Of a stretch of 64,000 nt of DNA, positions 22,853-64,000 are shown piece after piece. Numbering within the stretch: position 1 is the first letter of the stretch; every line of letters begins with the position of its first letter. The DNA is from Botryllus schlosseri. Lineage: Eukaryota. The notes under the pieces were generated by a model, which searched no databases, was not told where the DNA came from, and was given only the letters and a program-made list of their open reading frames with translations. The position numbers and the translations under genes were made by a program. Location: contig CM119371.1 of NCBI GenBank assembly GCA_051294905.1, forward strand, positions 34,474,001 to 34,538,000. Reading direction: 5' to 3'.

Positions 22853-23559
22853 CCAACGACTCGATCGAATCGTTACAATTATTTTCCGATTAGCCTTAAT
22901 CGTTTCGCCCATCTGTATCCCACCTAAGTAGACCATATATCCACGGAGCGTGGGGTACATATCTTGACCTCTCTCTCAGTATAGATAACTAACCTACGGA
23001 TAGATACGCAACACCCGTCGTCTCGCCTGCTTGCCCGGAGAAAATTACTGCTCAGCAATCTGAACGCAACATAATTGCTAATCCCATAGCTGACGACCCG
23101 CGTGCTTAAATTGAATAAAGTTGATCATATTTGAAAGCTACTGTCGCACTGATTCCGAAAATATACATTAAAACCAAATCAGGGCAATGGAACCCCCTTG
23201 AGATACACCTCAAAGTCTGAAAATTGGCATTGTTCTAAACAATCGCAACCACGCAAGGGCCATTATTATGGTCATTGCGCTGCGTGCTTAGTCGTTAGTA
23301 ATATGTAACGCGAATTTAGCGCACATTTGTGTCTGTGACTTGTACGTGAAGCTAATTCATAGGAGTCATCGGTGAACAAACTAGGTCTGCGATAGGGCGG
23401 GAATGGACCGGAGCCGGATTGGATATCCGGCCGGATTTTCGCATTTTTGGCACGAGACTGTTCGGAGCGACATGCCACCTCATATGACAAGCAATTTCTA
23501 CTGAATATTCACGAGTCAGCCCTCCTCGTATTTACCTGACTGCGGCGTGACATACACTA

Positions 23560-42600: not shown

Positions 42601-44951
42601 CATCGCGGATAGAGAGGTAATCTGCGGTAGCCGGGCAATTCGGAGAATCGCGTTGTCTAGGTATTTTCGTTAGGTTCTAGGCTTAGGTTGTGGGCAGAGG
42701 TGTCTGTAAAGAAGTTCTTCTACACTTAGTACTAGAGTAGGTTTTGCCTAGACCAGTGGTTCTCGACCTTTTTGTCTTCGCGGACCCCTTTTGGACGGTC
42801 AAGGACCCCCGCTGACACCACAAGTTTTAGTTCAAATTTAGCTCAATTATCGTGCGTATCGTCTGCGTTTCGCAAACATTAACAGTCGGCTAGTGACAAA
42901 CAGCAACAAAATGACTATTCTTGAAAAAATCATCACACTCTTCATGTGGATAATTGCATGGACGGTAGCGAATTCTGCAGCTGCTTTTCTTGAAATACGT
43001 GGTCGTGTCCTGAAAATCCGCGCCTTTGATTTGATATGAACGAGTGCCGAAAATTTATTTCCGCAAAGAGTGGTGGCAATGCCATAATGGGCAACGCTTT
43101 CGACGACCCCTTTGGGTATAATCGCAACATATATGCCACAAATATTGAGACACAGATATTTTATTGAACACATAACGTCCATCCTAGTCATTTCTATCTA
43201 GCAGCTCATCTCGAAATTGTTCGGGAATAGCGGTTATGTATGTCACAGGAAAAATGATTTTTGCATGCGTCTGAAGTCACGCTGATTGACCTTACTATTT
43301 CTACTTTATTATTTTTCCACAAACCCCAACAAAACGACTCCAAACAGTAATATGCTTCTATCCGTAGGCTATTGCCAATTTGGCAATCCAAATGAGTTTG
43401 TACAGTAGGATCATCTCAGACGGTCATTCTTTTGATGTGAGTCTTGACTCTTGAGGTTGTAGCAGTAATGAAGCGAAACTGACTCGTAATTTCTCTATTT
43501 TGAAAATAGAATATAAATACGGTTATCAATCATTTTGCAAATTTAGAGGCTTCGTGGACTGTTGAGAACCACTGGGTTAGACTATGCTACTCAATCTAGG
43601 AGTTGTGTGTTTTAACCAATTCCACTTCTCCTCAGCAGTATTTTACAGCAATAGCTGTCTGCTCGATTCCAAGTGGCAGCAGCGATTACTCGTTTTTGAA
43701 GCTACATAATCAAGTACTTTCCAATCCTTCCTTCCATGCTTCAACTTGAAGTAACTTTGACATATTGGCTCGGATATATTGCCACTGCTGGACTTGTGAT
43801 TGAGTAGAGATGAACTCTGTGGCTTCTACTGAGTAGCAACGCTGTCAACTTTAACTATAGATTACTAAACTAAGGACAGATATACAACTCCAGTGGTTAC
43901 ACTTGAATACGCAGTAGTGTTCAATGTTTACTGCTGAACTGAACAGAGCCAGTGGTTTTGGTGAACCCACAGCTTGCGACCCGAGCACAAAATCTATGAA
44001 AGCTGGTCAAGTTCGAAAGCTAGTGTCGCACTGATTCTGAATATATGAATTAAAACCAGGTAACCACACCGAAATCTCACTCGAAGTCTGAAATCAAGAT
44101 TGCTCGGAACAACACCAATTGCACACTTCTGATCGTGATGTTAATGGGGGGTCACTGCCTTCACCAGACTTCAATTTCTATTTTCGTAATCAGTGCAACA
44201 GTAGCTTTCGATAAAGGCCGATTTTATTAAATTTTATGCTTGTCACCGGCTATGGCATCATCCAGGGTTACAACCAAGTTGCAAGGTTCCGAGTCACAAG
44301 TCAATCGCACTTTTATAATTTTGACTCGTGTCAAGTCGAGTCATTTTCAATTCACAGCGAGTCAAACCCGAGTCCAAGTCATTGAGTAGAGGGTGTAGTC
44401 CGAGCCACAGTGTTGCGACTTGAGTCCGAGTCATTGTGTTTTGAGTTCAATCCGGTTTAACCCATTTTTTCAACTCTGCTCGGATGATATACAATGGCTC
44501 TTATTTATGAATAGTCATTATCTTCAGTCTGCCCCTATTTTCCAAGTAGCAGGACTGATAGCCGAAATCCAATAACGTTAGTAACTTTACTATTCTTCGT
44601 GAAGTTAGATGAAATAATTGTCTTGGCCGTCCTAGTGTTGAATCCTATGACTTGGTTCGAGTCATGCACAATGACTCGAGTGCAAGTCGAGTCAATACAA
44701 AAATTAACTCGAGTTGAGTCATTTTACGCATTTGAAAAAATGACTCGAGTCACTTGGGTCGAGTCGTGACTCGAGTCATTACAACCCTGCGCTATGTATA
44801 CCTTGACGTGATATGAGAATGTCAGCGTCGTTCGTGACTGACCCGTTGAATTTTCCAGATCACCGTTCGAAAACCTTCGGGGACCACGGTCAGGATATTT
44901 GTGTCGCAGCTGCACCGCGGCAAGTACGGAATAAAGAAGTCGGCGCAGTGA
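36691..44951 (+). CDS. SUDS3: Sin3 histone deacetylase corepressor complex component SDS3, 7 coding exons, about 310 aa
   Basis: Exons 36691-36775, 37699-37789, 39369-39516, 39702-39797, 40900-41109, 42407-42616, 44859-44951; all GT-AG, phase-compatible, 933 nt in total. Motifs DEDTDDASETD, GTLQEY, KKVELKENLIAEL, MELTG, DKRRKP, GKLLYDKKW, RIFVSQLHRG. Start could be 36691 or 36697. Confidence 0.93.
37049..37544. mobile_element. GACTCGAGTC family A MITE in SUDS3 intron 1
   Basis: CAGGGTTGTAACCAAGTCAC start, colinear with 5567-6150. Confidence 0.8.
40029..40458. mobile_element. GACTCGAGTC family A MITE in SUDS3 intron 4
   Basis: Perfect TSD ATTAAACT; colinear with 5567-6150. Confidence 0.88.
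42754..43574. mobile_element. Charlie-like hAT MITE in SUDS3 intron 6
   Basis: CAGTGGTTCTCGACC...GTTGAGAACCACTG; inverted similarity to 53444-55023. Confidence 0.8.
44263..44789. mobile_element. GACTCGAGTC family A MITE in SUDS3 intron 6
   Basis: CAGGGTTACAACC...TTACAACCCTG; colinear with 5567-6150. Confidence 0.82.
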
Positions 44952-45526
44952 ATTGTGGCGCGTCCGCAACGGCTTGAAGCAGTCTCGGTAACGCGACGGT
45001 TCGCGAATCCCGTTGAAGCTTGCAGTGGGGACTGCCTCCCCAGGGTCGTGTTTGTTGGCTGGTATAAAAAACGAATTGGAGTGTGTTTCAATTGACGTTA
45101 GGCTCAGCGTGTGTTTGTGATCATCCGTCGAATCTTCCTATGCGAGCATACCAGTTACTGGGTTGTCGCATCCCCTTCTACGCGTGTTTCATTGATGTAG
45201 CAACAGAGGTGGTCAGCATGGCTAAGCACAATGGTTCCGGTATTCTAGGGTTACCAACGTCCTCCTTCAGGTGGATTTGTCCTCCTTTTTGAGATAACGT
45301 CCTTTTTTTTGACAAGTTTGGTTATACATAGGGCAAAATTCGACTGAGATACAGTAAATCAGCACTGAAGTAGAGCTGCTGCGGCTACTTCGGGAGCTGA
45401 GCCTAAAAGTCGACTTTTTGTGATAACGTGAAGGAAAAACTGTACTGCAAATTCGGTTTAGCTTGGAGATTGGTGCCAGCCAACCAGGTAGCCACCGTAA
45501 ATTTTATGAAATGTCCGTTTTTTTTC

Positions 45527-45532
45527 AATAAA
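45527..45532 (+). terminator. Putative SUDS3 polyadenylation signal
   Basis: AATAAA about 575 nt after the stop, followed by T/GT-rich sequence. Confidence 0.4.
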
Positions 45533-45811
45533 ATATTTATATTTGTGCAGTAAAAGACTTGTTCGCGTTAGTAGCAAAGACAGTTTACATGATAGAATGC
45601 AATCGGTTTAGTTCGATCTCAACATATTTATAAATGAAAATGTAGTAAACTGGTCTAATGGTGTTTTACTCAGACACCTACCTCGACCTGGAATACGATA
45701 TGAAGACATGAGATGAAATGGATGTTCCGCTGTTTCAAAACGGTTTACATGGGTGTGCTAAGCTAATACACATGGTGTAATGTACTGTATAGTTCACGAC
45801 TGCACGTACAT

Positions 45812-46226
45812 CAGAGATGAGCGGATTTGAAATTTCTATGTCCTAATCCAATCCAAATCCGAACCTTCAAATCCAAATCCTAATCCATAACTTTTTCATA
45901 TTCAAGTCCATGTCCAATCCTAATCCGATTCCAACTGGAAATTCAGAAAAAATACTAATTTATGCAACGGAGGGATTCGAAAATTTTCTTTCACAACCAA
46001 CGATTCACTTGATTCAAGATAACTTGATAACCATAAGTACATTAATAACTGATCTGAATAAAGTTTGTCGCCATTCGTCAGACGACATTTCAATCTCCCA
46101 GAAAATATGTAAATCCAATCCAAATCCTAATCCGTTCTAAAAAAAATGTCTAATCCAATCCAAATCCGACAAAATTTCACAAATCCTGTTTTTTCAAAAC
46201 CTAATCCTAATCCATGCTCATCTCTG
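45812..46226. mobile_element. hAT-like MITE with AATCC(A/T) repeats
   Basis: TIR CAGAGATGAGC...GCTCATCTCTG; perfect TSD ACGTACAT; highly similar to 62773-63199. Confidence 0.92.
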
Positions 46227-46472
46227 ACGTACATGGAAGGCGCAAGGTGTTTTCATTTGTGATGACATTACGCGCCAGCTGCTATCCGTCATGCATGGCG
46301 GCGTTTATTTTCTGCCATTGGTGTGAAAAGGACCTCAGCTTATAAATAACTAAGGTAAACCTTGGTCAGTAACCACACGTAGTAGCTACTCGCTAAGTAA
46401 CCCCATGGACAGATATTCCCATTTAAATGCAGAAATTAATATCCCCTTCCACAAGCGCCCAGCTAAACAAAT

Positions 46473-46514
46473 TATAGATAACTAAGGTAAACCGGTTTAC
46501 TTTAGTTATCTATA
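46473..46514. mobile_element. 42-bp palindromic mini-element of the TATAGATAACTAA family
   Basis: TATAGATAACTAAGGTAAACCGGTTTACTTTAGTTATCTATA flanked by AACAAAT direct repeats. Confidence 0.8.
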
Positions 46515-46631
46515 AACAAATCGAGCTGCGTAGACATGCATCAGAGCGCGAAATGACGTGTCGCGAGTTATTGTCGCATCTCGCAATGACTCGCATCTAC
46601 GGATTACCTTAGTTGTAAATGTCAGTTCGCT

Positions 46632-46667
46632 TATAGATAACTAATCTACGTAGGTTAGTTATCTATA
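46632..46667. mobile_element. 36-bp palindromic mini-element of the TATAGATAACTAA family
   Basis: TATAGATAACTAATCTACGTAGGTTAGTTATCTATA flanked by GTTCGCT/GCTCGCT; absent from the paralogous site near 63600. Confidence 0.8.
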
Positions 46668-46928
46668 GCTCGCTTGTCTGTGGTAAGTCAGCTTCATGGT
46701 TAGCCTCAGCACCATCGTCATCGTGTTACCGCTTATGTTCTATTAACAGCACAGTGGTGCTTCAACTCACAGGAACTCAAGATAGGTTTGCATATAGTTC
46801 AAGCATAGCAATTTACAACGTTGTAAATTGCTATGGTTCAAGGGTCGTGGTAACGTAAGACTAGGGTTGGTGGTTAGCCTCTAATTCTACGATACCCCGC
46901 CGCAAACGATAATATCGATCCTTAGCTA

Positions 46929-47380
46929 CACTACAAAAAAAATTAGACAAATTGGTCTCAAAATTAGACAAATTTGGTCTCAAATTTAAGAAATGAGGAT
47001 GATTTGGTCTCATTTTACCACCCACTCACCATAAATGCTATTTTCGACTCGGACAACCATATATATATTGATCTGAATAGTACATGTGAGTAGTAAGTGG
47101 CATGTACCTTGATAACTATATCTAGTGAATACCTTGTGAACTTAGTACAGGATCATCTCAACACTGCAATTTCTGGTCTCTCTCATCCTTCCCCTCCTCT
47201 GCTCAGACCCCTAACACTGAAAAGGATGCCCCCGAGGCACTGCTACTTTTTTCGATCAATTTCTGGCTTACTTTTGAGACATAAAGTACTTGGTAAGACT
47301 AATTGGTCTTTAAGATATTTTTTCATAAAAAGTCACTTTAAGTTAATAAGATAAAAAATGTCTTATTTTTTTTTGTAGTG
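46929..47380. mobile_element. CACTA-terminus non-autonomous element
   Basis: CACTACAAAAAAAA...TTTTTTTTGTAGTG with TA on both sides; the paralogous site near 63808 is empty. Confidence 0.85.
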
Positions 47381-48278
47381 TATAGTTATTGACTTTGACA
47401 TGTTCATGGAGAGCCCTGATTGGTGATGGCCAATTGGCCATGTTGTAGAGTATGGTTAAAAAAAAAGTACATTAGAGAGTGGACGTGGTGAGTGTTATCA
47501 CGGACAGTTAGTCATGCATGGTTCGTATTCATGGAAAATATTGTAATTTCAGTGAGGAATTGCGCTTCAGGATGATAAAGTAGAGGAACATGTACCTGAA
47601 TGGTAATATCATATCTCAGAATTATTTCATTTTTAGTCAGAACTGTAAAGCCTTGAATTGGACAACTGTGAACCTGAACACTTATTTGCCTGGTTTCGTG
47701 TGGTGACACAATGTGTTCGTGATTGTCTTCAAGGCGTTATAGTTCTTCTGCCACGAAAATGAATAATTTTGTGAAACCCTGTACACTGTGTTCAGGTTAT
47801 AGGGCAGAAATATATATTTACTTTGTTAGGGACTTGGGGTTAGAGTTCAAGGTTTGGATAGGGGTTGACTAGGATTAGAAGATGCAAAGTGCTGAATTCA
47901 ATACAACCAGGGTTGTAACCAAGTGGAAAGTCAATCATAGACTTGAGTCAGGTCGAGGTCAAGGTGCAAAGGGTCGAGTCCAAGTCATACTATCGAGACT
48001 TTAAAGAATTGAGTCTGCTGTTTGGTCACAATGAGATGCCTGTCTGCCCGTCCGAGTCTCAAGTCATATGACAATTCGAGTCAATACGCAAATTGACTCG
48101 AGTCAGTTGTTTTCCATATCTAAGAAAATTACGGCCCGGATTACAACAGCAAAGGTTTTGAAGATTTGATGAACGACGTCTTTTGTGTTGACTCTTCTAC
48201 GCAGATTCTATAACTAGAACGAGACTTTTTACCTGAAACTGTCATTACATAATTTACGGCAGCAACGTACCGAAGACT

Positions 48279-49502
48279 ATGACTCCCAACTCCAATGTGT
48301 GTGAGATTTGCGGGAAAGTGTTCAAATCACCGCTGCACCTTCAATCGCACGAGGTTATTCACACCGGGGTGAAAGCGTACAAGTGTGATATCTGCGGAAA
48401 AGCATTTGTAAATAGTTCGGTACTGTACAAACATTTATTATATCACTCTGACATCAGACGGTTTCGGTGTGAGATATGCCACAAGGCATTCCGTCAAAAG
48501 GCCCACTTGAATACGCACATGCTTGCTCATTCCGGTGTCAAAGAACATAAATGTGACATCTGCAATAAGGAATTTCGTCAAAAAGCACACTTGAGAACGC
48601 ATATGCTCGGAGTTCATTCCGGCATCAGGAGATATAAATGTGATATCTGCGCCAAGGAGTTTCTTATCACTCAAAATTTGAAAAAGCACAAAAAAACTCA
48701 TCTTGATGTCGATAAGCATGACTGCGAAATCTGTGGAAAGGCAATGGCTTCGCACGAAATGTTGAAATACCACTTGAAAGCCCACATGGGAATCAGAGAA
48801 TATGTGTGCAGCGTATGTGGTAAAGGGTTTATTCTTCGGAGCCAACTAACGAGCCATTCGCTAATTCACGCCGACGCCGTGCAACATTGCTGTGAGATAT
48901 GCGGCAAGTATTTTCGTCATAAATCACTGTTAACTGCTCACATGCGCAGTCATCTTGGTATGAAACCGATCAAAAGATTCATTTGCGAGATATGCGGTAT
49001 AAAATTTCTTCGAGACGGGGAGTTGATGATGCACATGAAAATTCATATTGAATGCAAGGATCAAGAATGCGATGTATATGGGATGGCTTTCGCTTCCAAG
49101 TCGAAATTGACGCGTGATTTGCCAAGTCATGGCTACGTGCAACAGTGCTGGTATCGATGTGTCATATGCGACAAGAAATTTCGTGATAAATTTGCTTTGA
49201 ACAGTCATATGGGCATTCATTCAGTCGCGGATTGTAGCGAAGAATTCACTTGTGAGGTCTGCGGCAAAGGATTTACTCGACTCCGTTACTTGCAAAAGCA
49301 CACGCGAATTCATACTGGAGTCAAAGATTATAGATGTGGTGTATGCGGGAAGGCTTTCATTGCAAACTACAAACTCGTACGTCATTCGCTAACTCATATT
49401 CGCATCAAGCGTCATCGCTGTGACATTTGCAATGTGGCATTCGGGCAACAATCAAGTTTAAATTTACACATGCAAAAGCATTTACCCTCAGCAAGCATTT
49501 GA
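48279..49502 (+). CDS. Tandem C2H2 zinc-finger protein, 14 fingers (finger 10 degenerate), no recognisable effector domain
   Basis: Repeated CxxC-x12-HxxxH with TGVK/SGVK/SGIR linkers; finger 10 reads CDVY...RDLPSH; in-frame stop shortly upstream of the ATG. Confidence 0.92.
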   Translation: MTPNSNVCEICGKVFKSPLHLQSHEVIHTGVKAYKCDICGKAFVNSSVLYKHLLYHSDIRRFRCEICHKAFRQKAHLNTHMLAHSGVKEHKCDICNKEFRQKAHLRTHMLGVHSGIRRYKCDICAKEFLITQNLKKHKKTHLDVDKHDCEICGKAMASHEMLKYHLKAHMGIREYVCSVCGKGFILRSQLTSHSLIHADAVQHCCEICGKYFRHKSLLTAHMRSHLGMKPIKRFICEICGIKFLRDGELMMHMKIHIECKDQECDVYGMAFASKSKLTRDLPSHGYVQQCWYRCVICDKKFRDKFALNSHMGIHSVADCSEEFTCEVCGKGFTRLRYLQKHTRIHTGVKDYRCGVCGKAFIANYKLVRHSLTHIRIKRHRCDICNVAFGQQSSLNLHMQKHLPSASI

Positions 49503-50416
49503 AACGGAACGCGACAAAACATTGAACCTAAAATTTATCAAGACTGGTCCTGATCGAAAGTTAGTGTCGCACTGATTCCGAATATAGACATTGAAATCAG
49601 GTCAGCACGTACCGGAGCCCATGAAATCACGGTTCCAAAAAATCGTAGCGTCGCACTGGGTGATTGTATGACGTTGCTCCGATACAACAACAATATGAAT
49701 TTCTGATTGTTATTTCGGGGGGGGGTCGGAGCCCTGACCAGATTTTAAGGTAATAATCACGGTTCCGAAAAATCGTAGCGTCGCACTAGGTCAGTGGTTC
49801 CCAAGTGGTGGGGAATAGATGCATTTGTTAAACATTATATACAGGACAGTCTACGTATTTACCAAGACACATGCGCAATTACCGTTACCAGTTAACTGCT
49901 TAGGAATGTATGTATCGAAAATTTGATATTGCGTGTTTTTCACAAACGCTCATTCAATTCTGGATAACCAATTATGGCGTCACAAACGCCTCCAGCACGA
50001 CCAGAATGACGTGAAATAACGCTTTCCCTAAATTTTGAAAGTTGCCGGTATCGGTTCACAATACGTTTCAGGTTTTATGTTGCAGTTATAGGCCATTGTC
50101 TTGCGTACTGGTCTGGTTGTGTGTGTTGTGTGCTCCGTAATGACAAAAGTTTTGGGTAGTGTGGAATGAAGGAATGGAATATATCTGAAGTGGGGAATGA
50201 AAGCAAAGAGGTTGGGAACCACTGCACTAGGTCATTGTATGACGTTGCTCCAATACGGATTTCAGACATCTTTTCGTGATTTCTGGAGGGCTTGGTGCCC
50301 TGACCAGATTCGAAGTTATATTTTTGGGATCACTGCAACAGGAGCTCGGCTTGCCAGCTATGGGATCACCAGATCTGCTGCTATTGCCCTACGCAGCAGT
50401 AAACACTACTGCGTAT

Positions 50417-51730
50417 CAGTGTTGGGATGACTCGAGTCATGACTTGACTCGAGTCACCTTTTTCGTATGACTTGACTTGACTCGAGTCACTCTGCAAAAA
50501 TGACTTGACTTGACTTGACTCGACGCTTCAAAAATGCAGATTGACTCGTGACTCGAAGCAAAATTTACGAGTCAATTTCAAGTCATCAAGTAATCGATGT
50601 CAACTAAATCGCCGTATCTTGTATAAGTTCGGATTGTTAACCGATCACTCAATGATTGTGCGTTTTACCGAGCCTTCATTATTACATCACTAATGAATTG
50701 ATCGTTAACGCAGTGATCGGAGCTTATAGCTTACATTGTCGTAATGTTGCTCACCTCAACCAACCCTCTTGCGTGCTTTAAAACGAGCGAATATTATCCA
50801 TACGTTTATAGTTGTATATCATGGATATATATGTGGGTAAGGTATTGCTCCATATCATTTCATTGAACCTTCTGATGCTTCATATGCTATCCTATATTTT
50901 GGCTGAAAATTATAGATCGGGGAAGGGCAAAGCTGCTTCACGGGCGAGCCGTATATCACAAATCGTTGCCTTAAAAGAGTTACAACACAAAAATTGATAC
51001 ATAGGCTTACTACTATATTTCGTCACCAGGAAATCTAGGGTATCGATTGAAGTTTATTATTGTGTGGTATCAGACGATGCGTCTCCACCTAGGCTGCAAG
51101 GTGTTTGAAATTGGACTGATATGACGTCAAACAGGGTGGAGCTTGGTAATCATGATACTTCGTAAACATGCCTCTTTTGGATAACGCATGGAAATTTAGG
51201 TTTTGATGTTTGGTTTCGTAATGACGTTTCAATTCTAGCTGTGTGATTATTGCGCGAATCTTGACGGAAAAGGCATTGTGGGTTACGTTCATTATCACCG
51301 AATGCACATTGAGCAAAGATTCAAAGAGCATGCAGCAGGCGGCTCGCGAGTCGCAGTTTTCCCTCCCGTGTTATAGACTGAGGCTATACCGCTATACTTG
51401 CGCAGTTTGACAGTTCTACGTATGCATGAGCGATAGAGCGCCTTCTTGCGTGTGTAATCAACTCTTTATTCGTTCCTCAATTCAGAATAAATGGGGACTC
51501 CATTCATATTTAAAACAGTTAGCAAAATGCAATGACTTTGAATCACGTATCGTACTTTGAAAATTCAACTTGACTCGTGACTTGACTTGACTCGAGTCAC
51601 CTCCAAAACTCGGGTGACTTGACTTGACTCGAGTCACCTTTGAAAATCGAGTGACTTGACTTGACTCGAGTCAAAATCTGCAATGACTCGAGATGACTCG
51701 TGACTCGAAGGTAGTGACTTGATCCCAACA
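50417..51730. mobile_element. hAT-like element, GACTT/GACTCGAGTC family B
   Basis: CAGTGTTGGGAT...ATCCCAACA; flanks CTGCGTAT / TGCGTAT. Confidence 0.82.
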
Positions 51731-51859
51731 TGCGTATTCAAGTATGACCACTAGAGTTCCGTTTCTAGCCGTAGGTTAGTTATCTATACTTTGATCGCCT
51801 GTGGAAACGTGGCATGAGAACGTCAGCTTTGGTCGTAGGTGCCCCGTTGAATTTTCCAT

Positions 51860-51952
51860 ATCACCGTTTGTAAAGCTTCAAGGACCACGGTCAGGATGTT
51901 TGCATCGCAGCTGCACCGTTGCAAGTATGGAAAAAAGAAGACCACTCAGTTA
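51860..51952 (+). pseudogene. Duplicated, inactivated terminal exon of SUDS3
   Basis: Translates ITVCKASRTTVRMFASQLHRCKYGKKKTTQL versus ITVRKPSGTTVRIFVSQLHRGKYGIKKSAQ* at 44859; acceptor TTTTCCAG changed to TTTTCCAT. Confidence 0.88.
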
Positions 51953-52704
51953 ATTTATTGCAGCAGTATCGGTTGCTGAATCGTTTGAAAGCTCGCAGTG
52001 ACAACTGCCGACACTGGGTCGTGTTTATAGCCTGGGATTAAAACGAATTGGACTGTATTTTAATCGACGTTATGCTCAACGAAGGTTTGCGCTCGTATGT
52101 CGAATATTCCTATCCGAGCATATCTGTGGCGGGCTTGTTGAATCCCGTTGTCCGTGGCTATATCTATGTATAAGTAGATGGCTCGGTTTGGCTGCGCACA
52201 ACGATTCGAGAGGGAGAGATGAATATATGCTGCAATTATATGTTACTTGCCACTACCTATTAATTTATTAACAAAGACTTGTAGAACTGGCATACATATT
52301 CGCTGCAGTCGCTTGAAAGTGTTATCAAGAACATGGCGAAGGTTATCGAACTTCGCACACTTTACAGTTGTGACGTCTTAGCGAGTGATACTCGATTCAG
52401 ATTCAAATCACTCGGGTACTCGATTTCGCCGAAAATCGATTAATCGCATCTACACCATATCTGCAATAAACTTGTGATCTGCGATTCTACTTTGACTCCC
52501 TTTCTGTTGCCTGCAGATTCGGTTAAGCTTGCTAGCCAACCAGCTTACCACCGTGAATTTTATGAAATGTCCATTTTTTTATAAAAAGATTATATTTGTG
52601 CAGTAGCTTTTTCGGTGGTGTTCGAGGCTCGTTCGTGTGGGCAGCGATGGCAGTTTACGTTTACATGATCAAATGCAATCGGTTTAATTCGATCTCAACA
52701 GCTA

Positions 52705-55155
52705 TTGCAATCAATCAGGTTTCTTAATATTTTCATCGTTTCAAAACATCACAAGACTGCGATACAATGAAAAGATAGGAAGGTGTCGAAACAACTTGGA
52801 GTAGCCTTTAATATCAGACACCCACCTTAGCCTAGGCGAAGTAAAGAAGAGGCATGCGCACTGAATGCAAAGTAATGCAGAGAATATAAGACGCAAGCGA
52901 CAAAATGAGGTGGCATGTGGCGGAGGGCGAGGTCGGTGTTAGGTCGTGGTCCGGTAATCGTGAAGACTGGCTAGTATTCATTTAGAAGAAATTGCTTGTA
53001 TTTCGACTTGAATGTGGACATGCTCGACGACTGTCGGATAGCCGGCGAGATGCTGTTCCACAATTGGGGTCCGGCATACTTGATAGAGCAATGCGTTTTC
53101 TTGTATTCAGTCCTGATCATCTGGTAGTTTTTCTTCGTTGACGCGCGTGTGGTGTACTTGTGCGCTTTTGTCTCCGAGGTGAAGTAGTCGTTGAAATTTG
53201 AGGGACATTGACCGCAATGGAACTGATACATAAACATTGCAATTTCTAGCTTCCTCATATCTTCTAAGTTTAAAACACCAAATCTTTTGAGAAGCGATTT
53301 ATCAGTTGCACATCCAGGCCCCCATGGGGCTTTGGCAATGATACAGATGATCCGATGTTGACGTTTTTGCAGAGGGTCAATTGTATTCTTGAAGGCGGCA
53401 CCCCAACAAAGAATTCCGTATTGTAACTTTGATAGGAATAGAGCAGCGGTTCTCAACCGGGGGTCCGCGGAGCAATTTCAGGGGGTCCGCGAGACCTCTA
53501 AATTTTTAAAATGATTGATAACCTCATTTCTATTTTATTTTTTAATTTGAGAAAGCATGAGGCAGTTTCGCACCACAACTGCTAAAACCTCGTGACTCAT
53601 ATCATCATCATAATCGTCTGACATGAACTATCGTAGTGTGGAAATTCATTTCCATTGCCAATTTTCCAATAGCCTGCTGATACAAACAAATTACTGTTTA
53701 GAGACGTTTTGTTGGGGTTTGTGGAAAAAATTAAAATATGGAGATAGTAACGTCAATCAGGGTGACTTTGTAATGTCTGCAAAACCTTCTCATCAATATG
53801 AAGTTGTCAGTCTCATCACATTAGTGAACAGTCGTTTGAAATAAATAATTTGCGAAGTATTTCCCGAATTTGTCCCAATGCAGCGATTGAAACCTCGCCA
53901 CGAAATCCATTTTATCCTGTGATATACGTAACCACTATTTGAAGAGCTTCTTGGAGGTACAGAACTTCAGTATACAATTGAATTGTATATTCATATTGAA
54001 ATGAACCCGAATATTTACGGCTGGCACTCGTCATAAATCGGACAATGATATACCCACTCTTAAAGCTCGGCTATCAGATTTGGCGTAATCCTATTGCGGA
54101 TGCCCTATCGACAACGCTGTTTTTTTGATGAACAAGGAGTGTTTTGTTGCTGTTGAAGCATTACACTCCAACCCTGAAATTCATATCACCAGTTATATTG
54201 GTATGCAGCCTTGTCTTGTTAATGTTCAATTGTTCATGGTCGAAAATGTTTGCTCGTAAATATATGTGTAAACCCAAACAGAGCAATTCGTTTCATGACA
54301 TTCTCTCTGAGGTTGGAAAACTTGGATCCATTCTTTGGCGCATAAATTTTGTCTATAATTTTAGATTAGGATTTCACTTTGACGGTATAGAAACTCTCTG
54401 CGGGCCGATCAAAATGCCGTCACGGGCCGAATCCGCCCCGCGGTGCATATGTTGCCCGTCCTTGCGCTAGATGCTGGGCGTGATATGTTCATAAAAGATA
54501 TGTTTCTTCATTTTGGTGCCATAAATGTTGCGATCACACCAAAAGTATCGTCGGAAGCGTTATGCGGGGGGCAGACTAGATGACCTCATGGGGCCGTATC
54601 GCAACTCCGTCGCCAAAGCATCTCGATGGTGCAGGCGAAAAAGAATATCATATCTCTCTCTCTCTGCGTTAATATTGCATTAGCCTCCATCTATCTTTGC
54701 GAAAATGGTTTTCGGCACATATCTCGTTCATATCAAAACGAAGACGCGGATTTTCAAGACACGACCACGTACTTCAAGAAATACAGCAGCGAAATTAGCT
54801 TTGAAATAATAAAGTCTACCAATTTCTACATAAATAGTATGCTGTTATTTTCAAGAAAAATCAAAATTTTGCTGTTTATCAAAAGCCTACAGTTCATAAT
54901 TGCGCAAGACAGATGAAGGTTGGACCATAATAGAGCTAAAATTGAACTAAAACTTGAGGGGGTCCGCGAGGGTCCGTGACGGTCAAAAGGGGTCCGCGAA
55001 GCTAAAAAGGTTGAGAACCACTGGAATAGAGTGTTGAAGAGTATCAACAGCACGCTGACTGGCAGAGTGTAGCTAAGGCGGCGAAATAGACCACATACCT
55101 TCGACTTCGATAGTTGTGGTTTGAGTATTTGTATGTGACTCTTCCAGGACATGTG
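52705..55155 (-). mobile_element. Second, diverged 5'-truncated L2-like LINE, split by a hAT insertion
   Basis: Peptides MSWKSHIQ...VLLILFNTLF (55152-55024) and LSKLQYGILCWG...FKSKYKQFLLNEY (53435-52971) join when 53444-55023 and one TSD copy are removed; 3' UTR like 19340-19600. Confidence 0.88.
53444..55023. mobile_element. Charlie-like hAT element inserted in the LINE
   Basis: TIR CAGCGGTTCTCAACC...GGTTGAGAACCACTG; perfect TSD GAATAGAG. Confidence 0.92.
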
Positions 55156-57092
55156 ACATTATTTTAAATAAGAATGTAGGAAGGAGTCGAAACGACTTGT
55201 CGTTGTCATGGTGTTTTACTCAGACGACTACATTGACCTGGAACATGTTATCAAGATGCACAGTGCACACTTCCTTCCACGTCAGATGAAATGGACAATG
55301 GATAAAATGAAGTGGAGTCTGTAGGTGCGCGAAATTGGTTTGTCAGATCGGGGGCCCGGTAAATCTCGAGCAATGACTTATATATTGTTCCATCGGCGGC
55401 TCTATTATTTGTCTGCTAAAGACCTGTGGTTCTTGGGCCAAGCCTGGGGTGTGAATTTACGTTGTGCTGAAACCTGTAGGGTGTTCCTCCCATCCCACAA
55501 CGCCAGTAATCGGTATATTATCAGATTCTAAGTCACGGGTCACCAAAACGCGGCCCGCGGCCAGATTTTTAATTTCGTAAGAACGCTCTATAAACGACTT
55601 TGGGCTCCCCAAAAGACCATGCTAGCTTTACGAGGAGAGAGTTTTCCAGAAAGTACCATGTCTAGCTAACCCCAATATCGATTCTTTAGTCCATGGGTGG
55701 CCACTGGCCATTGGGTTTGAAATTGAAGTAGTAGTTCAAGTGAGGTAGTATATAGGCCTACAGTAGGAAGTGTCAAGGGCTACTGGGGTTTGTGCAGTAA
55801 TTTATGTGTGTGGTTGGGGGGGGGTGAGCTCGAAGGGGCCCAAAATTATTTCGTGAATTAGCATAAATTATAGAGTATTTTTTGAAAATTTATGCAACTT
55901 TTTCAAAAAATTTTCGTGTTGGTCGCGATTTCAAGATGCCAAATATATTGATATTTGCGTACTCTTCTCCCATGAAAAGATACGCAAGATTTATAGAAAT
56001 GGGCATATCCGCGTTGGCCATTACCGCCCCACGATTCAGCAAGACATATAAAGTGTGGCCGTTCCGTCTTTTGTTCCTCTAATAAGCTATCTACCTCACA
56101 GAAGATGATGCCACTGTCTTTCAGGTTCGAGACTGAAATGAGAGGTTCCACCGAATTCGAACTCACAGTATGTATTGCTCAAAAGCAGCAGTCAAGTACA
56201 AAAGCCAGCGCAGCAGAATACGAATAATATTAGTTCACCTTTTTGCCGCCGGCGTGCTCTCCTAACCGGAGATCACCCATCCTCCGGATCCGTGCGGCTA
56301 CAAAAGTTTTAGGCCATGTAGCATGCGACTCCAAGAAGTGTGCCAGAACGATCCGCAACGAGAAAACCTTTGCTGAAAAGGACTGCCCTTATGCTGACCG
56401 AAAACTTCGTTAGGTTCAATTGTCCATAGGCGCCTAAATGACTGGCGCCGAATGTTCCTGTCTTGGCAATCCGAACGTCACAAGACAAATACTATCCCGC
56501 AGGGAAAATTATATGCCAGTTCAGTTCCTGTCAACGAGTATAGGCTACGCCCGAAGATTGAGGGGTCCTACATTTTCAACCTCACTCAGCTCTACCTGTG
56601 AATCTATGAATACGTGAACAGAGAGAGGATAAAAATTGATATCAATATAATTATATGCATTTCCCGATCATGTTGACCGATTCAATCATTAATTATAGAA
56701 TTTTTTCGCACTTCGCGCGTTTAGGCGAGAAAAGCCGACTCAGTAAGCGGCCTCCACTGTAGATGATAGGTAGCGGTAAACAGCGTATAGCCTGAGGGGG
56801 TCTGGGCGACTAAGTTCGGTTTATCATCATATGGGGGACCAAAGACCAACTTTTTTCTGAGGGGGGACTGAAAAAGTGCTGTTACGGCCCTGTGTGCCAA
56901 TGTGTATGTTGTTTTGCGGTACCATGTCGTTATATGAATATTCGTGTATTATAAGCAATGCGGATTTGTGTTACCAGTGTGTGCGACCACGGAAAGGCGA
57001 GGTCTCGAGCCCACGAACACGACTAAGTTCCTGTTGGGTTTTCGCATGCCGTATCAGGGAAGTAATTACAGCCCACAGACCACGGTGCCCAG

Positions 57093-60000
57093 CAGAGTTG
57101 GATCAATTACATTATTTCAGTTCAATTACAATTACAATTACAATTACAATTACTTTCATGGATGTTTCAATTACATTACAATTACAATTACTCCATGCTA
57201 AAAATATCAAATTACAATTACAATTACAATTACTCCTTGCATGCTTCAATTACATTACAATTACAATTACAATTGCTGTTGTTGAACTTGCAATTGAATA
57301 ATCATAAATTCAACCGTGCTCCTTGACAACCGTAGCGTCGTAATTAATAACAATTCAAGTCTAGTTCAGATTGTGTAGTAATAAATGCGTTTATGTGCGT
57401 ACATAGTATGCTATGTAAGATGTCATTGTGACGTAATATAAGCGTGTTTTGTATGCTCGGTAATTATGGCTCACGTAATTGGAAATGTAAAATGTTATTT
57501 ACCTAATTTCCTATGGGTTAGGATTAAGGATAGGGTGCAGTATGTCGTTGAAAAAAGTATTATAATGCACGTGTTGGATTTGCGTATATAGTATATCATT
57601 ACAGAAATAATATTATTTTAATCGAGGGACGTAGGAATTAGGATGAGGAGTAAAAACAAAACCGTGCTTTGTCAGATAGGACGTTATATAATATCCAGTG
57701 GTCTGGTTAGTTAGCCAGACGAAGTAACGATGCAGCATCGTGATCTGAAATCGTATTGTAGATTGCCAACCCACGGATAGATGAGCATTGCGCAAGATGT
57801 GAGTCACGGATGAATGCACCGACAAACGTACTGCAGAGCCGGCTAAAAGCAGCAAACTTTGTAGTCCTACAGCTGGCGATCCAAGCGTCCAAATTTGGTG
57901 CATCGGGTCTTTATTGTAAGCTATTGATGCACTAATTCCGAAAATACAAATTAATATCTCGTCAGGACAATGTAACTGCTCCAAAATAGCCGTTTAAGGC
58001 CGACTGTTCTGAAAAGTGAGAGCGCCGCAGCAGCATGACCACAACAATGACCAAGTACGCCCAGCGATTGTTCAGAACAATGCCGATTCCCAGACTTTCA
58101 CGACTATTTTGGGATGGTACCATTGCCTGGAAATATACTTTTATTGCGGAATCAGTGTGACACAATGACATATATACAATGATTGGAAACTGCCACGCCC
58201 CTTAACGCTATAAGATAGATTCCCGGCGAAATCAGTCCGTCGCGGGATATGCTTGAGTAGAGGTACGGAATTGCGTATGTCGACTGTGGGGGAGTGCTGC
58301 AATCGACCTTTCTGGCGTACTAATTCACTGATTTTCCCCAATTGGTTTAGTTTTTGTTGGATTCTTGAGCATAGTGAGGCAGTGCTGCATACTAGGATCT
58401 AATATAACTTTTAACAATGCACATTTATCAAAGTACCGACTAGCTGTGAGGCATTTTAGCATCGGTTGCAACCATGCATGTACGACACAGCCAAAAAATT
58501 AATAGATACTGTGGGTGAACGTCAATATAGATGCGCAGAACCTAGACGGATTGTTAAAAGAGGATTTTAAAATATTCTGGCAGCATTTATGTCACCTGAT
58601 TTTATAAAAGAGAAGGGTTGATTACGATAATTGTGTGAGCAACTAAGTTGTTTTATATAGTATAGATTGTAATATTGTAGGGCCGAGTTCACTGGAAACC
58701 ATAGTATCAGTATAGCGATTGTACCTTCATAATATAATATAAAATCGGAACTAACCGGAAACTAACATTGTACTGATTGGTAAAATGGTAACAGATATAA
58801 CTTTTTACCGGGTCAGGCCGTTGAATCCACATTCCACATCAATGATGAGAATCGGCATTGTTCCAAACAATATTCCATCGGCAAAACAATGCACTAGAAT
58901 GGCATTGAGGATATTCACTCCATAGTTGGTATTGTGCACATCGACCTGGCGTGATATGTCGTACTACTCTCAATAGTTGAATCTTTCACACCGGGGTGTC
59001 CGAAAGCGTCTACCAATGCCCATTTATTCAAAATATACCTGGTAAACGTTTTGGCACTTCTTTGATATGAACTACCCGTTGTGAAGTGTTCCCCATGAAT
59101 TGCCTGTAAACCTTGAAAATTAACATGGGGTACTCGTAAAGATTGATAGCTGGAAGGATTGTACAAAATAGATGAGTTATGCATTTGCGAGCAACATTCT
59201 ATGGTGTCTTATTCATTCAAAGGTTAGGAAATGATTTTGTAACCTTCGTCATTGTATAGTGTGTACGTCCGTGGTTTTTTATGTATAACCTTCATAACTT
59301 TTCGCCATTTGCATCACGCTTTATGACCTGAGCATGAGCATCAACTTGCATTGTATGTGCCGCTACCCAGGTTATTTTTCCAGCAATGTAACTCCACAAT
59401 CATCCAATGCAAAATCTCTCTCTTGAATATGCACATTGCTCATATATATTGCATTTGCGGCAGTACGGAAAATACTTGACGGATTGAATTAATAACTTGA
59501 TTTCAATTGTAGTTGACTGGCAAAACTGTGACATAACAAATTCCCATTCTGTAAATGTCTAATGCATAAATTTTTTACAGGATCGTTCACATTTTTTATA
59601 AATTATAGTCCATTCTAACTTTCAAGAAAAGATTGTTCGTGTATTGAAACAGCCGCGAGGAAATTGAAAAGGATTCAGCGATCTTAATAAAAGTGCAAAT
59701 CATTATCTTATGGGATTTCGGCACGCCAGGCCGTCCATGAGAAGCAACCATGTCATGTTCCACTTTGCTTCAGACATTGAGATATTTCCAAAGATTGTAG
59801 TCAAAATGAATAATACTTTGACGAATGGTGCCGGATTGGATTGATACTCATTGGATCGATTGATGTAGAGAAAAATAGTCTTGCTGAAAGACTATACATA
59901 TTATTCGAGTACGAGAGGTGAAGAGATGGAAACTGCAAATCTACAATGCAACCTGTGGATAATTTCGTGTGCCTTGTGAATATGACAACCAAGTTCAGCT

Positions 60001-62648
60001 ACAACTGCCATTTAAAGCCATATTGCATTCCAGATAATATTGCTTCACATGTACTAGCTGGAAAAAGATATGCCGCTACTGCAAAACTGGAGATATTCTT
60101 ATGCCGCAGAAACAGCAACAAAATTCGTGAGCAGGGAAGCTTATCAAAGAGACAAGAAAACAACAACAATGCCAATCCATCGAGCAGACTACCTCATTAT
60201 CACCAAGAGATTGAGTCTTGATCCGTTATTGGAATCATTTTTATCTAGATCAGGAAATCTGGCCGCACCTGCGATATGGTAATTTTCAAAGAATAATTGA
60301 TTTCTAACGAGGCTTGAAACATACTAGTGTTCAAATGCCATGGTACTTGATGCTTGAATGCCCTCCGATGTTCAACGTCATGTGAGATCGCTGCTCTACC
60401 ATCCAACTGCTGTCCTGTTATTGTCATTAAGAGAGGATAAGAAAGCTCGAAAATATAACATTTGAGAATATATATTTTTGTTACGTGACAAGAAACATTG
60501 ACGTTATCAACTACTAGGCACAGTTATTCGATTGTTCATAATAGCACAGCACAGTTTCATAAATTACAACAAAAATAGATGCAGACAGTACATTTATCGA
60601 ACGGCTTAAACATAGGTATATCTGATATTGTAATTTGCATAAACATGAAAATCCCTTTTTGCTACATATTCACTTGACTTAAATGCTTTCCGTTGACTAG
60701 GATTTTGGTTCTTGTTATTCTGAATTTAGATGACAACAAGTCTGACATGATAACAAAAGTTGTTTATGCAGTTTTCAAGTGTGATAGTAAATGAAATATC
60801 CATACCCTGTATAAAATTCTCAATGATATTATGGTGTTGGTATCCTCATTGAAATTTAGACACGACTAGTATCAGAGCATTTAGGAGTCCATGAAGAGGT
60901 GAGGTGTTTAAGCTGTTCAAAATCCTGCTTCTGTAATACCCATGCGATGACACATTGTTATGATGCTCGGATTCACTCAACTTCTTCCATGATCACCTCG
61001 ACCATTCAGGGAATAGATGGTGATGTGTAAGTTCGGAGATTTGTTGAGTGAAGGGGATTGTTGGATAGTCTCTATTCCGTCCCATTCTTCGAAGTCACCA
61101 TCTTGCAAGTCAACTATGATTGTAAGAGTTGACAAACTGGACTGGACATGGACAACATTACAATTTAATGACTATACAAGGTATATGCTGTGAACAATCA
61201 TTTATAGATCATTGGCTGCGCACAAGTCTATCAAACCTGACATGGACAGTGGCAGGAACTTTCTACCTATTGTGGGTCACTCTTGCGCACACATACACTT
61301 ATAAGATATACCATAATATCATGGTAAATTGTACTCATGAAGTACCGTAGTTTGAAAAAGGTTTTGCAGACGTTTCTTAGTCAATTGGATATTGAAATCT
61401 ACTTGTTGAAGCAGAAAATGAACGGTCTGAAAAGTACTCGAGTAGTATGAAGAAATGAGTTGGACTTTACTTTGTATACATCTGTTAGTCAATTGTATAC
61501 TGTATCTACAAGCTGCTGACGATTACTCCTGATATGTATCAAACAAAAATATTTTTATTTTTATTCAATTGTATATATGAGCATTCGGATCACAAGATGA
61601 ATCTCCGTAACAAAGGAATAATGACTATTATTACTTCAAAACCGTGATGCTTTTTGCGATATCCTCAAGTAGATTTTGCCTACTTTCACAACTTCAGAAG
61701 GCCTGACTTCAGAGTCAGTTTTAGAACCTACCTGATTTGACTTGAAAAAATTAGAAATGACTTCGTGACTTGATTAAAAATTTGCAATGACTTGAAGATA
61801 GTGACCTGATCCCAACTCTAGCTCGTACTATGAAGTATCCATCTTTATTTGATACAGCGAGACCACCTCTGATCACAATTTTCATCACGTAGGCACACTG
61901 GTACATCAGTTTCGTCTGAATATTAAGCCATGCTACTGGTATTGGCCAAAACCTGTACAGTATGCACACATTTCACGTGCAAAAGAGGTCTCGATAAAAA
62001 ACTTTTCACTACGTTAACGCCAGTTCCTGAAGAAAGATTGCTGGCGAACCGTTTGTTTACATCGATTTCATACCTGTAGTGAAGCATGACTCGCGACGCG
62101 CTCAAACGCAGAGCTCATTGGAGTTTCCAATCATTGTATATATATCATTGGTGTGACACTAGCTTTCGATTAGGACCATACATATCAAATTTCGACGCTT
62201 GGATCGCCAGCTATGGGACTATCAATTCTGCTGCTTTTAGCCGGCTCAGCAGTTCGCTTCTCGGCGTATTCAATCGTGAGTCACGTGTTGCGAATCCATC
62301 CGTTGATTAGTAATCTAATAATTGTATACAATGGCAGCCGAGGCCAGCATAGCGGTAAAAATAAAAGACTTCGCCCGCAAGGGCGCAGTCAAGGGCTTCC
62401 GCGAATGGATCCACCAAATTCCTTGTCGACAGAGAATGCATTATAAGTCAATTATTTTATGATGTGCTTGTCAGGTCTCAATAGCAATTTAATGTAATTG
62501 AAATTGCAATTGAGCAAAATTTTTGTCAAATTACAATTACAATTACAATTACACAAAATAAAAATGCTTCAATTACAATTACATTACAATTACATTGAAA
62601 AATGTAATTAATTACATTACATTACAATTTACAATTGATCCAACACTG
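57093..62648. mobile_element. CAATTA-repeat hAT-like element expanded by a nested 4.6-kb insertion
   Basis: TIR CAGAGTTGGATCAATT...AATTGATCCAACACTG; perfect TSD GTGCCCAG. Confidence 0.9.
57757..62320 (-). mobile_element. Decayed long-TIR DNA transposon (TATAG family, 7-bp TSD) with MULE-like transposase remnants
   Basis: Diverged inverted arms (57757-57910 and 58155-58190 versus 62115-62320); TSD ATCGTAT/ATTGTAT; minus-strand stop-ridden peptides resembling the MULE domain (~60200-59900), TNN..ES (~59645-59615) and CSC...CK (~59345-59305). Confidence 0.65.
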
Positions 62649-62772
62649 GTGCCCAGTGTCCATTCCCTGGAGTACGTTGAAGGACGCATTTTCTTGCCTC
62701 GTCGCAATCGCACGCAAAAAGCGTTGAAGTGGAAGTAGGCCATAGATCACTTGCCTGGTATGTAGTATGTAG

Positions 62773-63199
62773 CAGAGATGAGCGGATTTGAAATTTCGAT
62801 GTCCTAATCCAATCCAAATCCGAACGTTCAAATCCAAATCCAAATCCTAATCCATAACTTTTTCATATTCAAGTCCATGTCCAATCCTAATCCGACTCCA
62901 ACTGGAATTTCAGAAAAAATACTAATTTATGCAATGGAGGGATTCGAAAATTTTCTTTAACAACCAATGATTCACTTGATTCAAGATAACTTAGTAACCA
63001 TAAGTACATTAAGAACTGATCTGAATAAAGTTTGTCGCCATTCGCCACACGACATTTCGATCTCCCAGAAAATAGGTGAATCCAATCCAAATCCTAATCC
63101 GTTCTGAAAAAAATGTCTAATCCAAATCCAATCCAAATCCGACAAAATTTCACAAATCCTGTTTTTTCAAAACCTAATCCTAATCCATGCTCATCTCTG
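62773..63199. mobile_element. hAT-like MITE with AATCC(A/T) repeats, second copy
   Basis: Same TIRs as 45812-46226 but a different perfect TSD, GTATGTAG. Confidence 0.92.
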
Positions 63200-63387
63200 G
63201 TATGTAGTCACATAGTCGAAGAGCAAAAACACTTGAGGAAGAATGAGTACAGTATTTCGAGTTATAAGCGGTCCGCCGCTGTCACTGTTGGATTTTGTGA
63301 TAGTCAGCATGGACCTGAGTTCCGCCATCTAGCAATACGAGTTATAACTGTACCGCCGTTTGAAACGGATGGCATGGATGTGCTAAT

Positions 63388-63417
63388 GCACATGCACATG
63401 CACATGCACATGCACAT
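63388..63417. repeat. (GCACAT)n hexamer microsatellite
   Basis: Five tandem GCACAT units. Confidence 0.8.
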
Positions 63418-64000
63418 AGTGTACGTACACTGAAAGCGCAAGGTGTGTTTATTTATTATTATATTACGCGCATAACTACGCCAGACCGCAAATGTATGTT
63501 GGCGCGGAAACAGCTTAACAACCAGCTGTTATCCGTCATGTACGTGTACGGCTTCGTTCGATTTTTGCAAGCAGTGTGAAGTGTGAACAGAACCTCAGCT
63601 TCGCTTCTCTGTGCTTCTGCTTAGCTTAGCTTGAACACTACCCGATCATCGTATTACCGCTGGTGTTCTATTAGCATCACAGCGGTGCTTCAACTCAGAT
63701 ATGTGTATATAATTAGTTTAAGGGTCGTGGTAACGGAAGATTAGGGTTTGGGGTTAACCTCTGATCCTACGATACCCCTGCCGCAAACTATAATATCGAT
63801 CCTAAACTACAGTTATAGACTTTGAAATGTTCATGGGGAGCCCTGATTGGTGATGGTCGTGTTGTTGTGGATAAGAAAGTACATCACAGATTCGATGCGA
63901 GATTCGAGTAAAATATTATATTTTTTAAGGAAGATTTGGGCTTACGGATTGTAAAGTGAAGGAAGGTGTACCTGGTGTCACAGAATTATTCATTTTCGTG

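Follow-up and report, generated by a model that had tools for sequence, protein, structure and literature searches.

An old direct duplication running from SUDS3 towards a C2H2 zinc-finger gene in Botryllus schlosseri, with a predicted second zinc-finger gene

In the 64,000-bp window of the Botryllus schlosseri genome analysed here (contig CM119371.1, positions 34,474,001 to 34,538,000), the region from the last SUDS3 splice acceptor to just before a C2H2 zinc-finger (ZNF) gene is present twice, in the same order and with about 20% divergence. This arrangement probably reflects one old head-to-tail duplication that extended from the last SUDS3 intron through the ZNF gene. SUDS3 (SDS3) occupies 36694..44951 on the plus strand, with seven coding exons recovered by tblastn with the Styela clava SDS3-like protein P0121, and its last coding exon (44859-44951) has both the CAG acceptor and the stop codon intact. 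The ZNF open reading frame follows on the same strand at 48279..49502 as a single exon of 407 codons for amino acids, with a splice acceptor ending at 48204. It encodes 14 finger positions, 13 of them canonical and the tenth degenerate (PF00096, E 4.4e-62), has no accessory domain among the ten Pfam families matched, and is the only ZNF in the window.

The self-comparison proposed in the initial annotation, run as self-BLAST and block alignments, recovered the direct repeat, and its claim that a unit at ~44800-47640 recurs in order held. The SUDS3-side segment 44806-47638 is present again at 51807-64000, with eight of eight blocks collinear on the plus strand and 994 of 1235 aligned bases identical over the summed blocks (80.5%). 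The comparable part of copy 1 (44806..47638, plus strand) comprises the SUDS3 acceptor region, last exon, 3' UTR (AATAAA at 45527) and intergenic DNA. In copy 2, the SUDS3 part (51807..52207, plus strand), a dead last exon with 3' UTR, pairs 44806-44951 with 51807-51952 (118/146 identical) and 44952-45237 with 51953-52207 (184/255). The counterpart of 45445-45624 (142/167) lies at 52511..52700 on the plus strand, also within a contig of sequencing run X2 (52383-52744), and alignment places that of 45625-45722 (82/97) at 55160..55295, plus strand, as an island between inserts. The ZNF-upstream region (63349..64000, plus strand) pairs 45723-45811 with 63349-63422 (53/66), 46235-46341 with 63430-63600 (86/106), 46670-46930 with 63601-63811 (176/208) and 47381-47638 with 63808-64000 (153/190). 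With copy 2 as target the eight blocks scored 55.6-226.4, and on either strand of window positions 1-43500 they reached no more than 28.8-48.4; over 20 shuffled targets the best bit score was at most 31.1, compared to 233 for the first real block. Both copies share orientation and order, as in a tandem direct duplication. Segmental duplications in the strict operational sense are longer than 1 kb and at least 90% identical; at 80.5% over 1235 aligned bases the pair falls below that identity, and the duplication is older than this class.

The SUDS3 exon in copy 2 carries its intron flank with it, since 44806-44858 and 51807-51859 align without gaps. Because these upstream intronic bases were copied along with the exon, copying took place at the DNA level. 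In the exon copy (51860-51952) the acceptor has changed from CAG to CAT, as first reported, the stop codon is lost and the upstream exons are absent. The two last exons differ by nine nonsynonymous and seven synonymous changes over 30 codons (dN/dS ~0.35); polarised against S. clava, five amino-acid changes fall in copy 2, one in copy 1 and one is ambiguous. The rest of the gene did not accompany the second SUDS3 exon, which then decayed and shows the co-copied flanking DNA, disabling lesions and relaxed constraint of an unprocessed pseudogene fragment. Such unprocessed (duplicated) fragments travel along in local duplications, and the SUDS3 piece is a passenger, itself functionless. Gene models should not include the SUDS3-like sequence at 51860-51952 as an alternative last exon.

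Both copies took separate transposon insertions after duplicating. Copy 2 is split by inserts of 303, 2459 and 8053 bp, a measured 10,815 bp that bears out the roughly 10 kb of later insertions initially claimed, and copy 1 has ~1.4 kb of unmatched inserts of its own that were overlooked at the time. Those in copy 1 are a MITE at 45812..46226, which we take to be hAT-type under target-site duplication (TSD) rules, with an 8-bp target duplication and, near 63423 in copy 2, an empty counterpart site; a palindromic insert at 46342..46669, in copy 1 only; and a non-autonomous element at 46929..47380, also confined to copy 1, with TA on both sides and, from its terminal sequence, presumably CACTA-like. 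In copy 2, a 5'-truncated LINE 3' end on the minus strand (52701..55159), 75% identical to 19341-20061, which adjoins an RVT_1 ORF, is itself split by a nested MITE composite (53444-55023, 8-bp TSD). Further along, 8,053 bp of nested repeats (55296..63348) include an element of 3,988 bp (58163-62150) bounded by 29-bp inverted ends and an 8-bp TSD, and a second hAT-type MITE copy (62773-63199); a six-frame Pfam search of these repeats and an Rfam search of 43000-64000 returned no matches. The strongest match in the region, 93% between 45812-46226 and 62773-63199, does not belong to the duplication, as it joins two MITE insertions with different target duplications: the element entered each copy independently, in copy 1 after the duplication. 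Target duplications of 8 bp were seen solely around single later inserts, empty insertion sites were found in each copy, and the paired full and empty sites give the relative order of transposon activity.

One small TA-flanked element with ~30-bp inverted ends (47595..47781), which we assume to be Tc1/mariner-like, is older than the duplication. The two copies share its insertion site, and the left ends depart alike from the right end. The final 30 bases of the window (63971-64000), a point overlooked in the initial annotation, are its left inverted repeat, within which the ZNF-upstream region of copy 2 is cut off; the right end lies in copy 1 at 47752-47781. Because a terminal transposon end occupies the same site in both copies, homology is still running at position 64000, in agreement with the claim that similarity reaches the last bases of the window. 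The two end strings quoted in support of that claim were both found, at 47614 and 63978, each one base from the position given. In copy-1 terms, a further 567 bp would reach the ZNF acceptor and 641 bp its ATG.

Between the ZNF stop (49502) and the start of copy 2 (51807) lie repeats of a palindromic interspersed family, element X, with nested inserts. Within this junction region (49528..51791), an X-family copy with an internal repeat starts ~25 bp past the ZNF stop and is interrupted by later inserts at 49792-50224 (8-bp TSD) and ~50417-51730. Another copy occupies 43853..44802 in the last SUDS3 intron, where a MITE (44263-44790) truncates its right arm; a tip remnant of 10 bp appears to persist at 44792-44801, where eight of ten bases and the flank match. 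The same family stands just before both copies, with a best match to the intron copy that is marginal. For the left arm of the X copy preceding copy 2, the intron copy was the best of eight arms (63/79 versus 55-61 matches), a thin margin (63 versus 61 of 79), and whole-element identities were 68-77% in all pairs; for the right arm it was the best of seven by score, but another member had higher identity (77.0% versus 74.2%). The duplication probably starts further left than 44806, inside element X, and we infer left breakpoints at ~43990 in copy 1 and ~49530 in copy 2. A breakpoint in X would imply a unit of ~5.5 kb as now standing, with the junction ~25 bp after the ZNF stop.

We propose that the unit from the last SUDS3 intron through the ZNF gene was copied once, head to tail, and that the second unit may have arisen by unequal crossing-over between two X-family repeats, the likeliest mechanism, to which we give an even chance. 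The second SUDS3 exon would have arrived without its gene and decayed, and each copy would then have gained its separate transposon insertions. Unit 1 includes the ZNF, so copy 2 would have had one from the outset, with a predicted start some hundreds of bases beyond 64000 barring further insertion. We consider it likely that a ZNF or its remnant lies downstream of 64000, and put an intact ORF there at slightly under an even prospect. For annotation, the region just past the window is the place to look for a ZNF paralog. Within 49.6-64 kb, tblastn and a pattern scan found no C2H2 remnants, a DNA search none (best E 0.43), and C2H2 Pfam models matched none of 12 read-through frames, long concatenated frames lowering the sensitivity of this last search. 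The duplication model expects such an absence, which nonetheless lends it no support. No loose ends at 64000 were present among the 24 of 15713 listed, and an exact 28-base pattern from near the window end had no matches in metagenome contigs.

A rather unlikely alternative is that the duplication is real and copy 2 never had a ZNF or has lost it: copying may have stopped within the 570 bp leading up to the acceptor, the gene may have been deleted, or the single-exon ZNF may have entered copy 1 later. Copy 2 is heavily disrupted by its 10.8 kb of inserts, the window ZNF is a single exon that abuts a repeat ~25 bp past its stop, and the several ZNF-like sequences in the species suggest that the gene may be mobile. 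Nor is there excess conservation upstream: ZNF-proximal blocks (329/398 identical) did not significantly exceed the 3' UTR and intergenic blocks (547/691) in conservation (Fisher p = 0.18), so there is no sign of a selected promoter in copy 2. Set against this alternative, homology is unbroken at 64000, the ZNF stop is not followed by a visible poly(A) tract, and single-exon ORFs are common in the window, which makes intronlessness weak evidence of retroposition.

Sequencing runs from the same species contain ZNF-like sequences. In run X6, which is only guessed to be RNA, contig 18 matches the ZNF at 741/823 positions (90%) with a net 39-nt shorter stretch, and the overlapping contig 19 at 330/338 (97.6%). 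A ZNF coding identity of ~90% is what we would expect from 80% non-coding identity under moderate purifying selection; the unplaced contig 18 could also represent a highly divergent allele or a paralog at an unlinked place. These unplaced, ~90% alike sequences, together with a read depth over the ZNF several times the single-locus level, favour a ZNF past 64000 indirectly. Few RNA reads fell on the ZNF, and the six covering 48290 had seven or more other differences, giving no proof of expression from this locus; none of the 15 joints listed out of 2541 was a splice into the ZNF acceptor.

The initial annotation had described the locus as the building block of an expanding ZNF cluster, that is, a SUDS3-tail and ZNF cassette copied repeatedly, which we regard as very improbable. 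Runs X1 and X2 represent one sample (S1). Reads were placed at 80% likeness; the result is swamped by repeats, and copies less than 80% alike would be missed. At site 48290, by the ZNF start, nine contigs in X1 and eight in X2 gave summed depths of 154 and 868.6, although summed contig depth is no copy number; the bin 48670-49336 had depths of 92 and 424.7, and long unique pieces had baselines of 19.2-23.6 and 80.7-98.3. ZNF depth is several-fold the single-locus level, and relative to the unique pieces it reaches ~7-10x over the ZNF start and ~9-15x over 63344-64000, as a cluster would predict. In contrast, sites 51797/51801 (depths 23 and 128.4) and 46300/46319 (30.8 and 145.6), with two contigs each, are near single-locus, these being a handful among 40 of 2446 sites listed, and 64 kb contain one ZNF and one extra SUDS3 last exon. 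As the SUDS3-side sites are close to single-locus, one duplication is in evidence and no cluster-building unit. An assembly artefact placing two haplotypes side by side, or a chance order of common repeats, is barely credible even in so repeat-dense a region, given ~20% divergence and separate insertions versus 0.5-2.6% differences in allele-like contigs 1, 2, 17 and 19, blocks that include a coding exon and lack matches in window 1-43500, and S1 contigs covering 49334-49724 and 52383-52744.

The single head-to-tail duplication that we favour is ordinary gene-family growth, with little significance beyond this genome other than as a clean example of a ZNF copied with a dead neighbour piece. 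It is quite doubtful, though conceivable, that a live ZNF pair gave rise to a lineage-specific family of ~5-10 members varying in finger number, in which the window ZNF, truncated ~25 bp beyond its stop, draws its 3' end from transposon DNA and the predicted copy keeps the ancestral 3' end, its upstream region lying 10.8 kb further from SUDS3; if true, this would be a well-resolved ascidian case of ZNF family birth in which transposons rewired regulation.

Comparison with known systems places the locus among familiar kinds of event. The copy-2 exon, accompanied by intron flank and 3' UTR and marked by a lost acceptor and changes concentrated in the copy, resembles unprocessed pseudogene fragments in general, from which its limitation to one 93-bp coding exon marks no real difference in kind. 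The ZNF protein has no close relative among the matches listed: identities were 25-45% in the best 120 of 6466 matches (8000 candidates scored), 30-49% against 24 shorter proteins, 29-42% in the best 150 representatives listed and 25-38% at eight metagenome loci. Direct orientation and a one-family repeat before both copies recall products of non-allelic homologous recombination (NAHR) or of reversed-ends transposition of hAT elements, the latter described in Zhang et al. 2013 (PMC3744419) as generating tandem direct duplications; unlike those products, the right breakpoint here lies outside the window and the repeat match is marginal. C2H2 genes are described, in the relevant passages of Tadepally et al. 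2008 (PMC2443715) and PMC10547256, as evolving by tandem or block duplication under a birth-and-death model, the former defining a cluster as two ZNF genes within 500 kb; the window ZNF has the tandem finger array of such clusters, and the window itself holds no second ZNF. As in the birth-and-death families of these passages, a tandem-finger ZNF lies in a direct local duplication, has related sequences in the same species and is lineage-specific (best matches listed 25-49% identical); in contrast to them, it is ascidian, has a single coding exon and no accessory domain, and its second gene is predicted only. In the passages concerned, a tunicate survey (PMC8122590) counts genes, duplication units and the present locus falling outside them, and reports that no transcription-factor family of tunicates is larger or more variable than zf-C2H2, with 154 genes in Styela clava, a repertoire from which local ZNF duplication is to be expected.

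Eight blocks of 44806-47638 (copy 1), a segment running from the last SUDS3 exon to a point upstream of the C2H2 zinc-finger gene ZNF, repeat in the same order and on the plus strand within 51807-64000 (copy 2). The two copies are identical at 994 of 1235 aligned bases (80.5%; Jukes-Cantor distance 0.23). For all eight blocks the score far exceeds the block's own best match in 1-43500, and the first block scores 233 bits where no shuffled target gave more than 31.1. This collinearity confirms the ordered recurrence described in the initial annotation, whose coordinates were correct to within a few bases. Its interpretation stands in part: the locus holds an ordinary, old, local duplication carrying a passenger pseudo-exon, and its role as a unit that builds a ZNF cluster is not supported.

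Both copies were interrupted by later insertions. Four unmatched stretches of copy 1 amount to 1408 bp. Among these are a MITE (45812-46226), flanked by an 8-bp target duplication, and a CACTA-like element (46929-47380), and for both the empty site is seen in copy 2. The blocks of copy 2 are parted by three inserts of 303, 2459 and 8053 bp, with a truncated LINE end holding a nested composite at 52701-55159 and nested repeats at 55296-63348. Across 52672-63343, each 667-bp bin has a summed depth of at least 2064 in the same-species sequencing run X1, about 100 times that of unique pieces. The family labels (MITE, CACTA-like and the like) are putative and follow terminal-repeat and target-site rules. 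A 93% match between 45812-46226 and 62773-63199 in copy 2 was rejected as a duplication block because its target duplications differ; it arose because one MITE family inserted separately in each copy. The LINE family of the 52701-55159 insert also occurs at 19341-21569 (minus strand), truncated, with an RVT_1 ORF of 475 aa. A 3,988-bp element at 58163-62150, with 29-bp inverted ends and an 8-bp target duplication, exceeds 100-fold depth in DNA runs and has no Pfam match. RNA reads lie about 14-38 deep per mate direction over 59.3-61.3 kb, and a contig of run X6, presumably RNA, terminates at its edge at 62150; the element is a transcribed non-autonomous hAT-like family.

Using tblastn with the Styela clava SDS3-like protein, we found SUDS3 in seven coding exons at 36694-44951, an additional copy of its last exon at 51860, and no second copy of any other SUDS3 exon in the window. 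One SUDS3 exon is 87% identical to the S. clava protein (runners-up about 51%), which points to an ascidian as the source of this animal DNA. As the initial annotation had noted, the duplicated exon lost its acceptor (CAG in copy 1, CAT in copy 2); its stop codon is also gone. Across 30 codons, 9 nonsynonymous and 7 synonymous substitutions separate the exon copies (dN 0.15, dS 0.42, from small counts), and polarisation by S. clava over the first 27 residues assigns five changes to copy 2 and one to copy 1, with one ambiguous. The AATAAA at 45527 in copy 1 has no equivalent at the aligned position of copy 2. The SUDS3 piece in copy 2 is dead.

Repeats of the palindromic family X lie just before each copy, at 43853-44802 in a SUDS3 intron and at 49528-51791 downstream of ZNF. 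At copy 2 the X tip adjoins the homologous flank, and copy 1 has a 10-bp look-alike of this tip at the equivalent position, behind a MITE without a clean target duplication. Between the left X arm at copy 2 and the intron copy, 63 of 79 positions agree, the highest count for eight arms compared (second, 61). Because this margin is thin and all pairs in the family are 68-77% alike, we go no further than to infer from sequence a duplication starting inside X, whose junction would lie about 25 bp past the ZNF stop; unequal crossing-over would be a possible route. Further X copies lie at 57759-62317 (interrupted by the 4-kb element), 22982-23300 and 26554-26940.

Since a head-to-tail duplication includes everything between its two starts, ZNF should belong to the unit. 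Its single-exon ORF (48279-49502) encodes 407 aa with 14 finger positions, of which 13 are canonical. No other C2H2 array occurs in the window, where GC content is about 41% and small repeats are dense. Finger 10 (49068-49130) is degenerate, its second Cys and first His replaced, and the adjoining fingers are intact. A splice acceptor lies 74 bp 5' of the ATG (48200-48279) with stops in all three frames between, which implies either a non-coding first exon or trans-splicing of the gene. None of the 15 splice joints listed, of 2541 from the aligned reads, enters the ZNF acceptor; a donor-like site at 46853 in copy 1 is changed in copy 2.

Similarity does continue to 64000, although the last 30 bases match the reverse complement of 47752-47786 (31/35) and belong to a small element, flanked by TA, of which they form the left end and which spans 47595-47781 in copy 1. 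A shared transposon end by itself proves nothing about homology. The left flank is, however, homologous between copies and both left ends differ identically from the right end; the element therefore predates the duplication, and homology is ongoing at 64000. From the equivalent point in copy 1, the ZNF acceptor follows after 567 bp and the ATG after 641 bp. We consider it likely that a ZNF or its remnant lies beyond 64000, with slightly less than an even chance that it is intact.

No close relative of ZNF was among the matches listed from the protein and metagenome-contig collections searched. We compared contigs from 4 of the 24 listed runs that carry this species name, at a likeness of 80%; two of these, X1 and X2, represent one sample, which may be related to the source of the assembly. 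Two overlapping contigs of X6 match ZNF, one at 330/338 positions and the other at 741/823, the latter with 13 letters in the place of 52 close to where finger 9 begins. Site 48290 is covered by nine contigs in X1 and eight in X2 (summed depth 154 and 868.6) and the mid-array bin has summed depths of 92 and 424.7, values that do not equal copy number; long unique pieces have depths of 19.2-23.6 and 80.7-98.3. Given this excess and the divergent contigs, the species probably has several ZNF-like loci, none of them placed. The 90% contig (741/823) could be a divergent allele instead of a paralog. Overall, the same-species runs lend indirect support to the predicted paralog.

The proposal that the duplication served as the unit of ZNF cluster expansion finds no support in the depth, which is near single-locus at the few SUDS3-side sites among the 40 listed of 2446, 51797/51801 (23 in X1, 128.4 in X2) and 46300/46319 (30.8, 145.6). 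Bin 63344-64000 lies above these sites (195, 1305.4); ZNF and its near upstream region could have been recopied as a smaller unit, or the bin could hold an old repeat. Conservation of the ZNF-proximal blocks is not significantly above that of the remaining blocks (p = 0.18).

Elsewhere in the window, two single-exon copies of a ubiquitin-conjugating enzyme (UQ_con) at 4608-5063 and 18215-18670 (plus strand) share 87.8% identity over 460 bp. The second no longer has its ATG and contains an in-frame stop, and the pair is a further local duplication with a dead copy. Single-exon ORFs on the plus strand encode 302 aa with a SEFIR domain (30849-31757) and 294 aa without a Pfam match (33395-34279), the latter of which we take to resemble ARMC1.

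The titles and abstract openings listed in the literature searches hold no account of this locus, which supplementary gene lists might include. The standard view attributes the growth of C2H2-ZNF genes in mammals to duplication, tandem and in blocks, combined with gain and loss (PMC2443715), lineage-specific expansion of C2H2-ZNF genes applies across animals (PMC10547256), and zf-C2H2 is the most variable family in tunicates (PMC8122590). For tandem direct duplications, the prevailing model is NAHR; alternative hAT transposition is another way in which they can form (PMC3744419).
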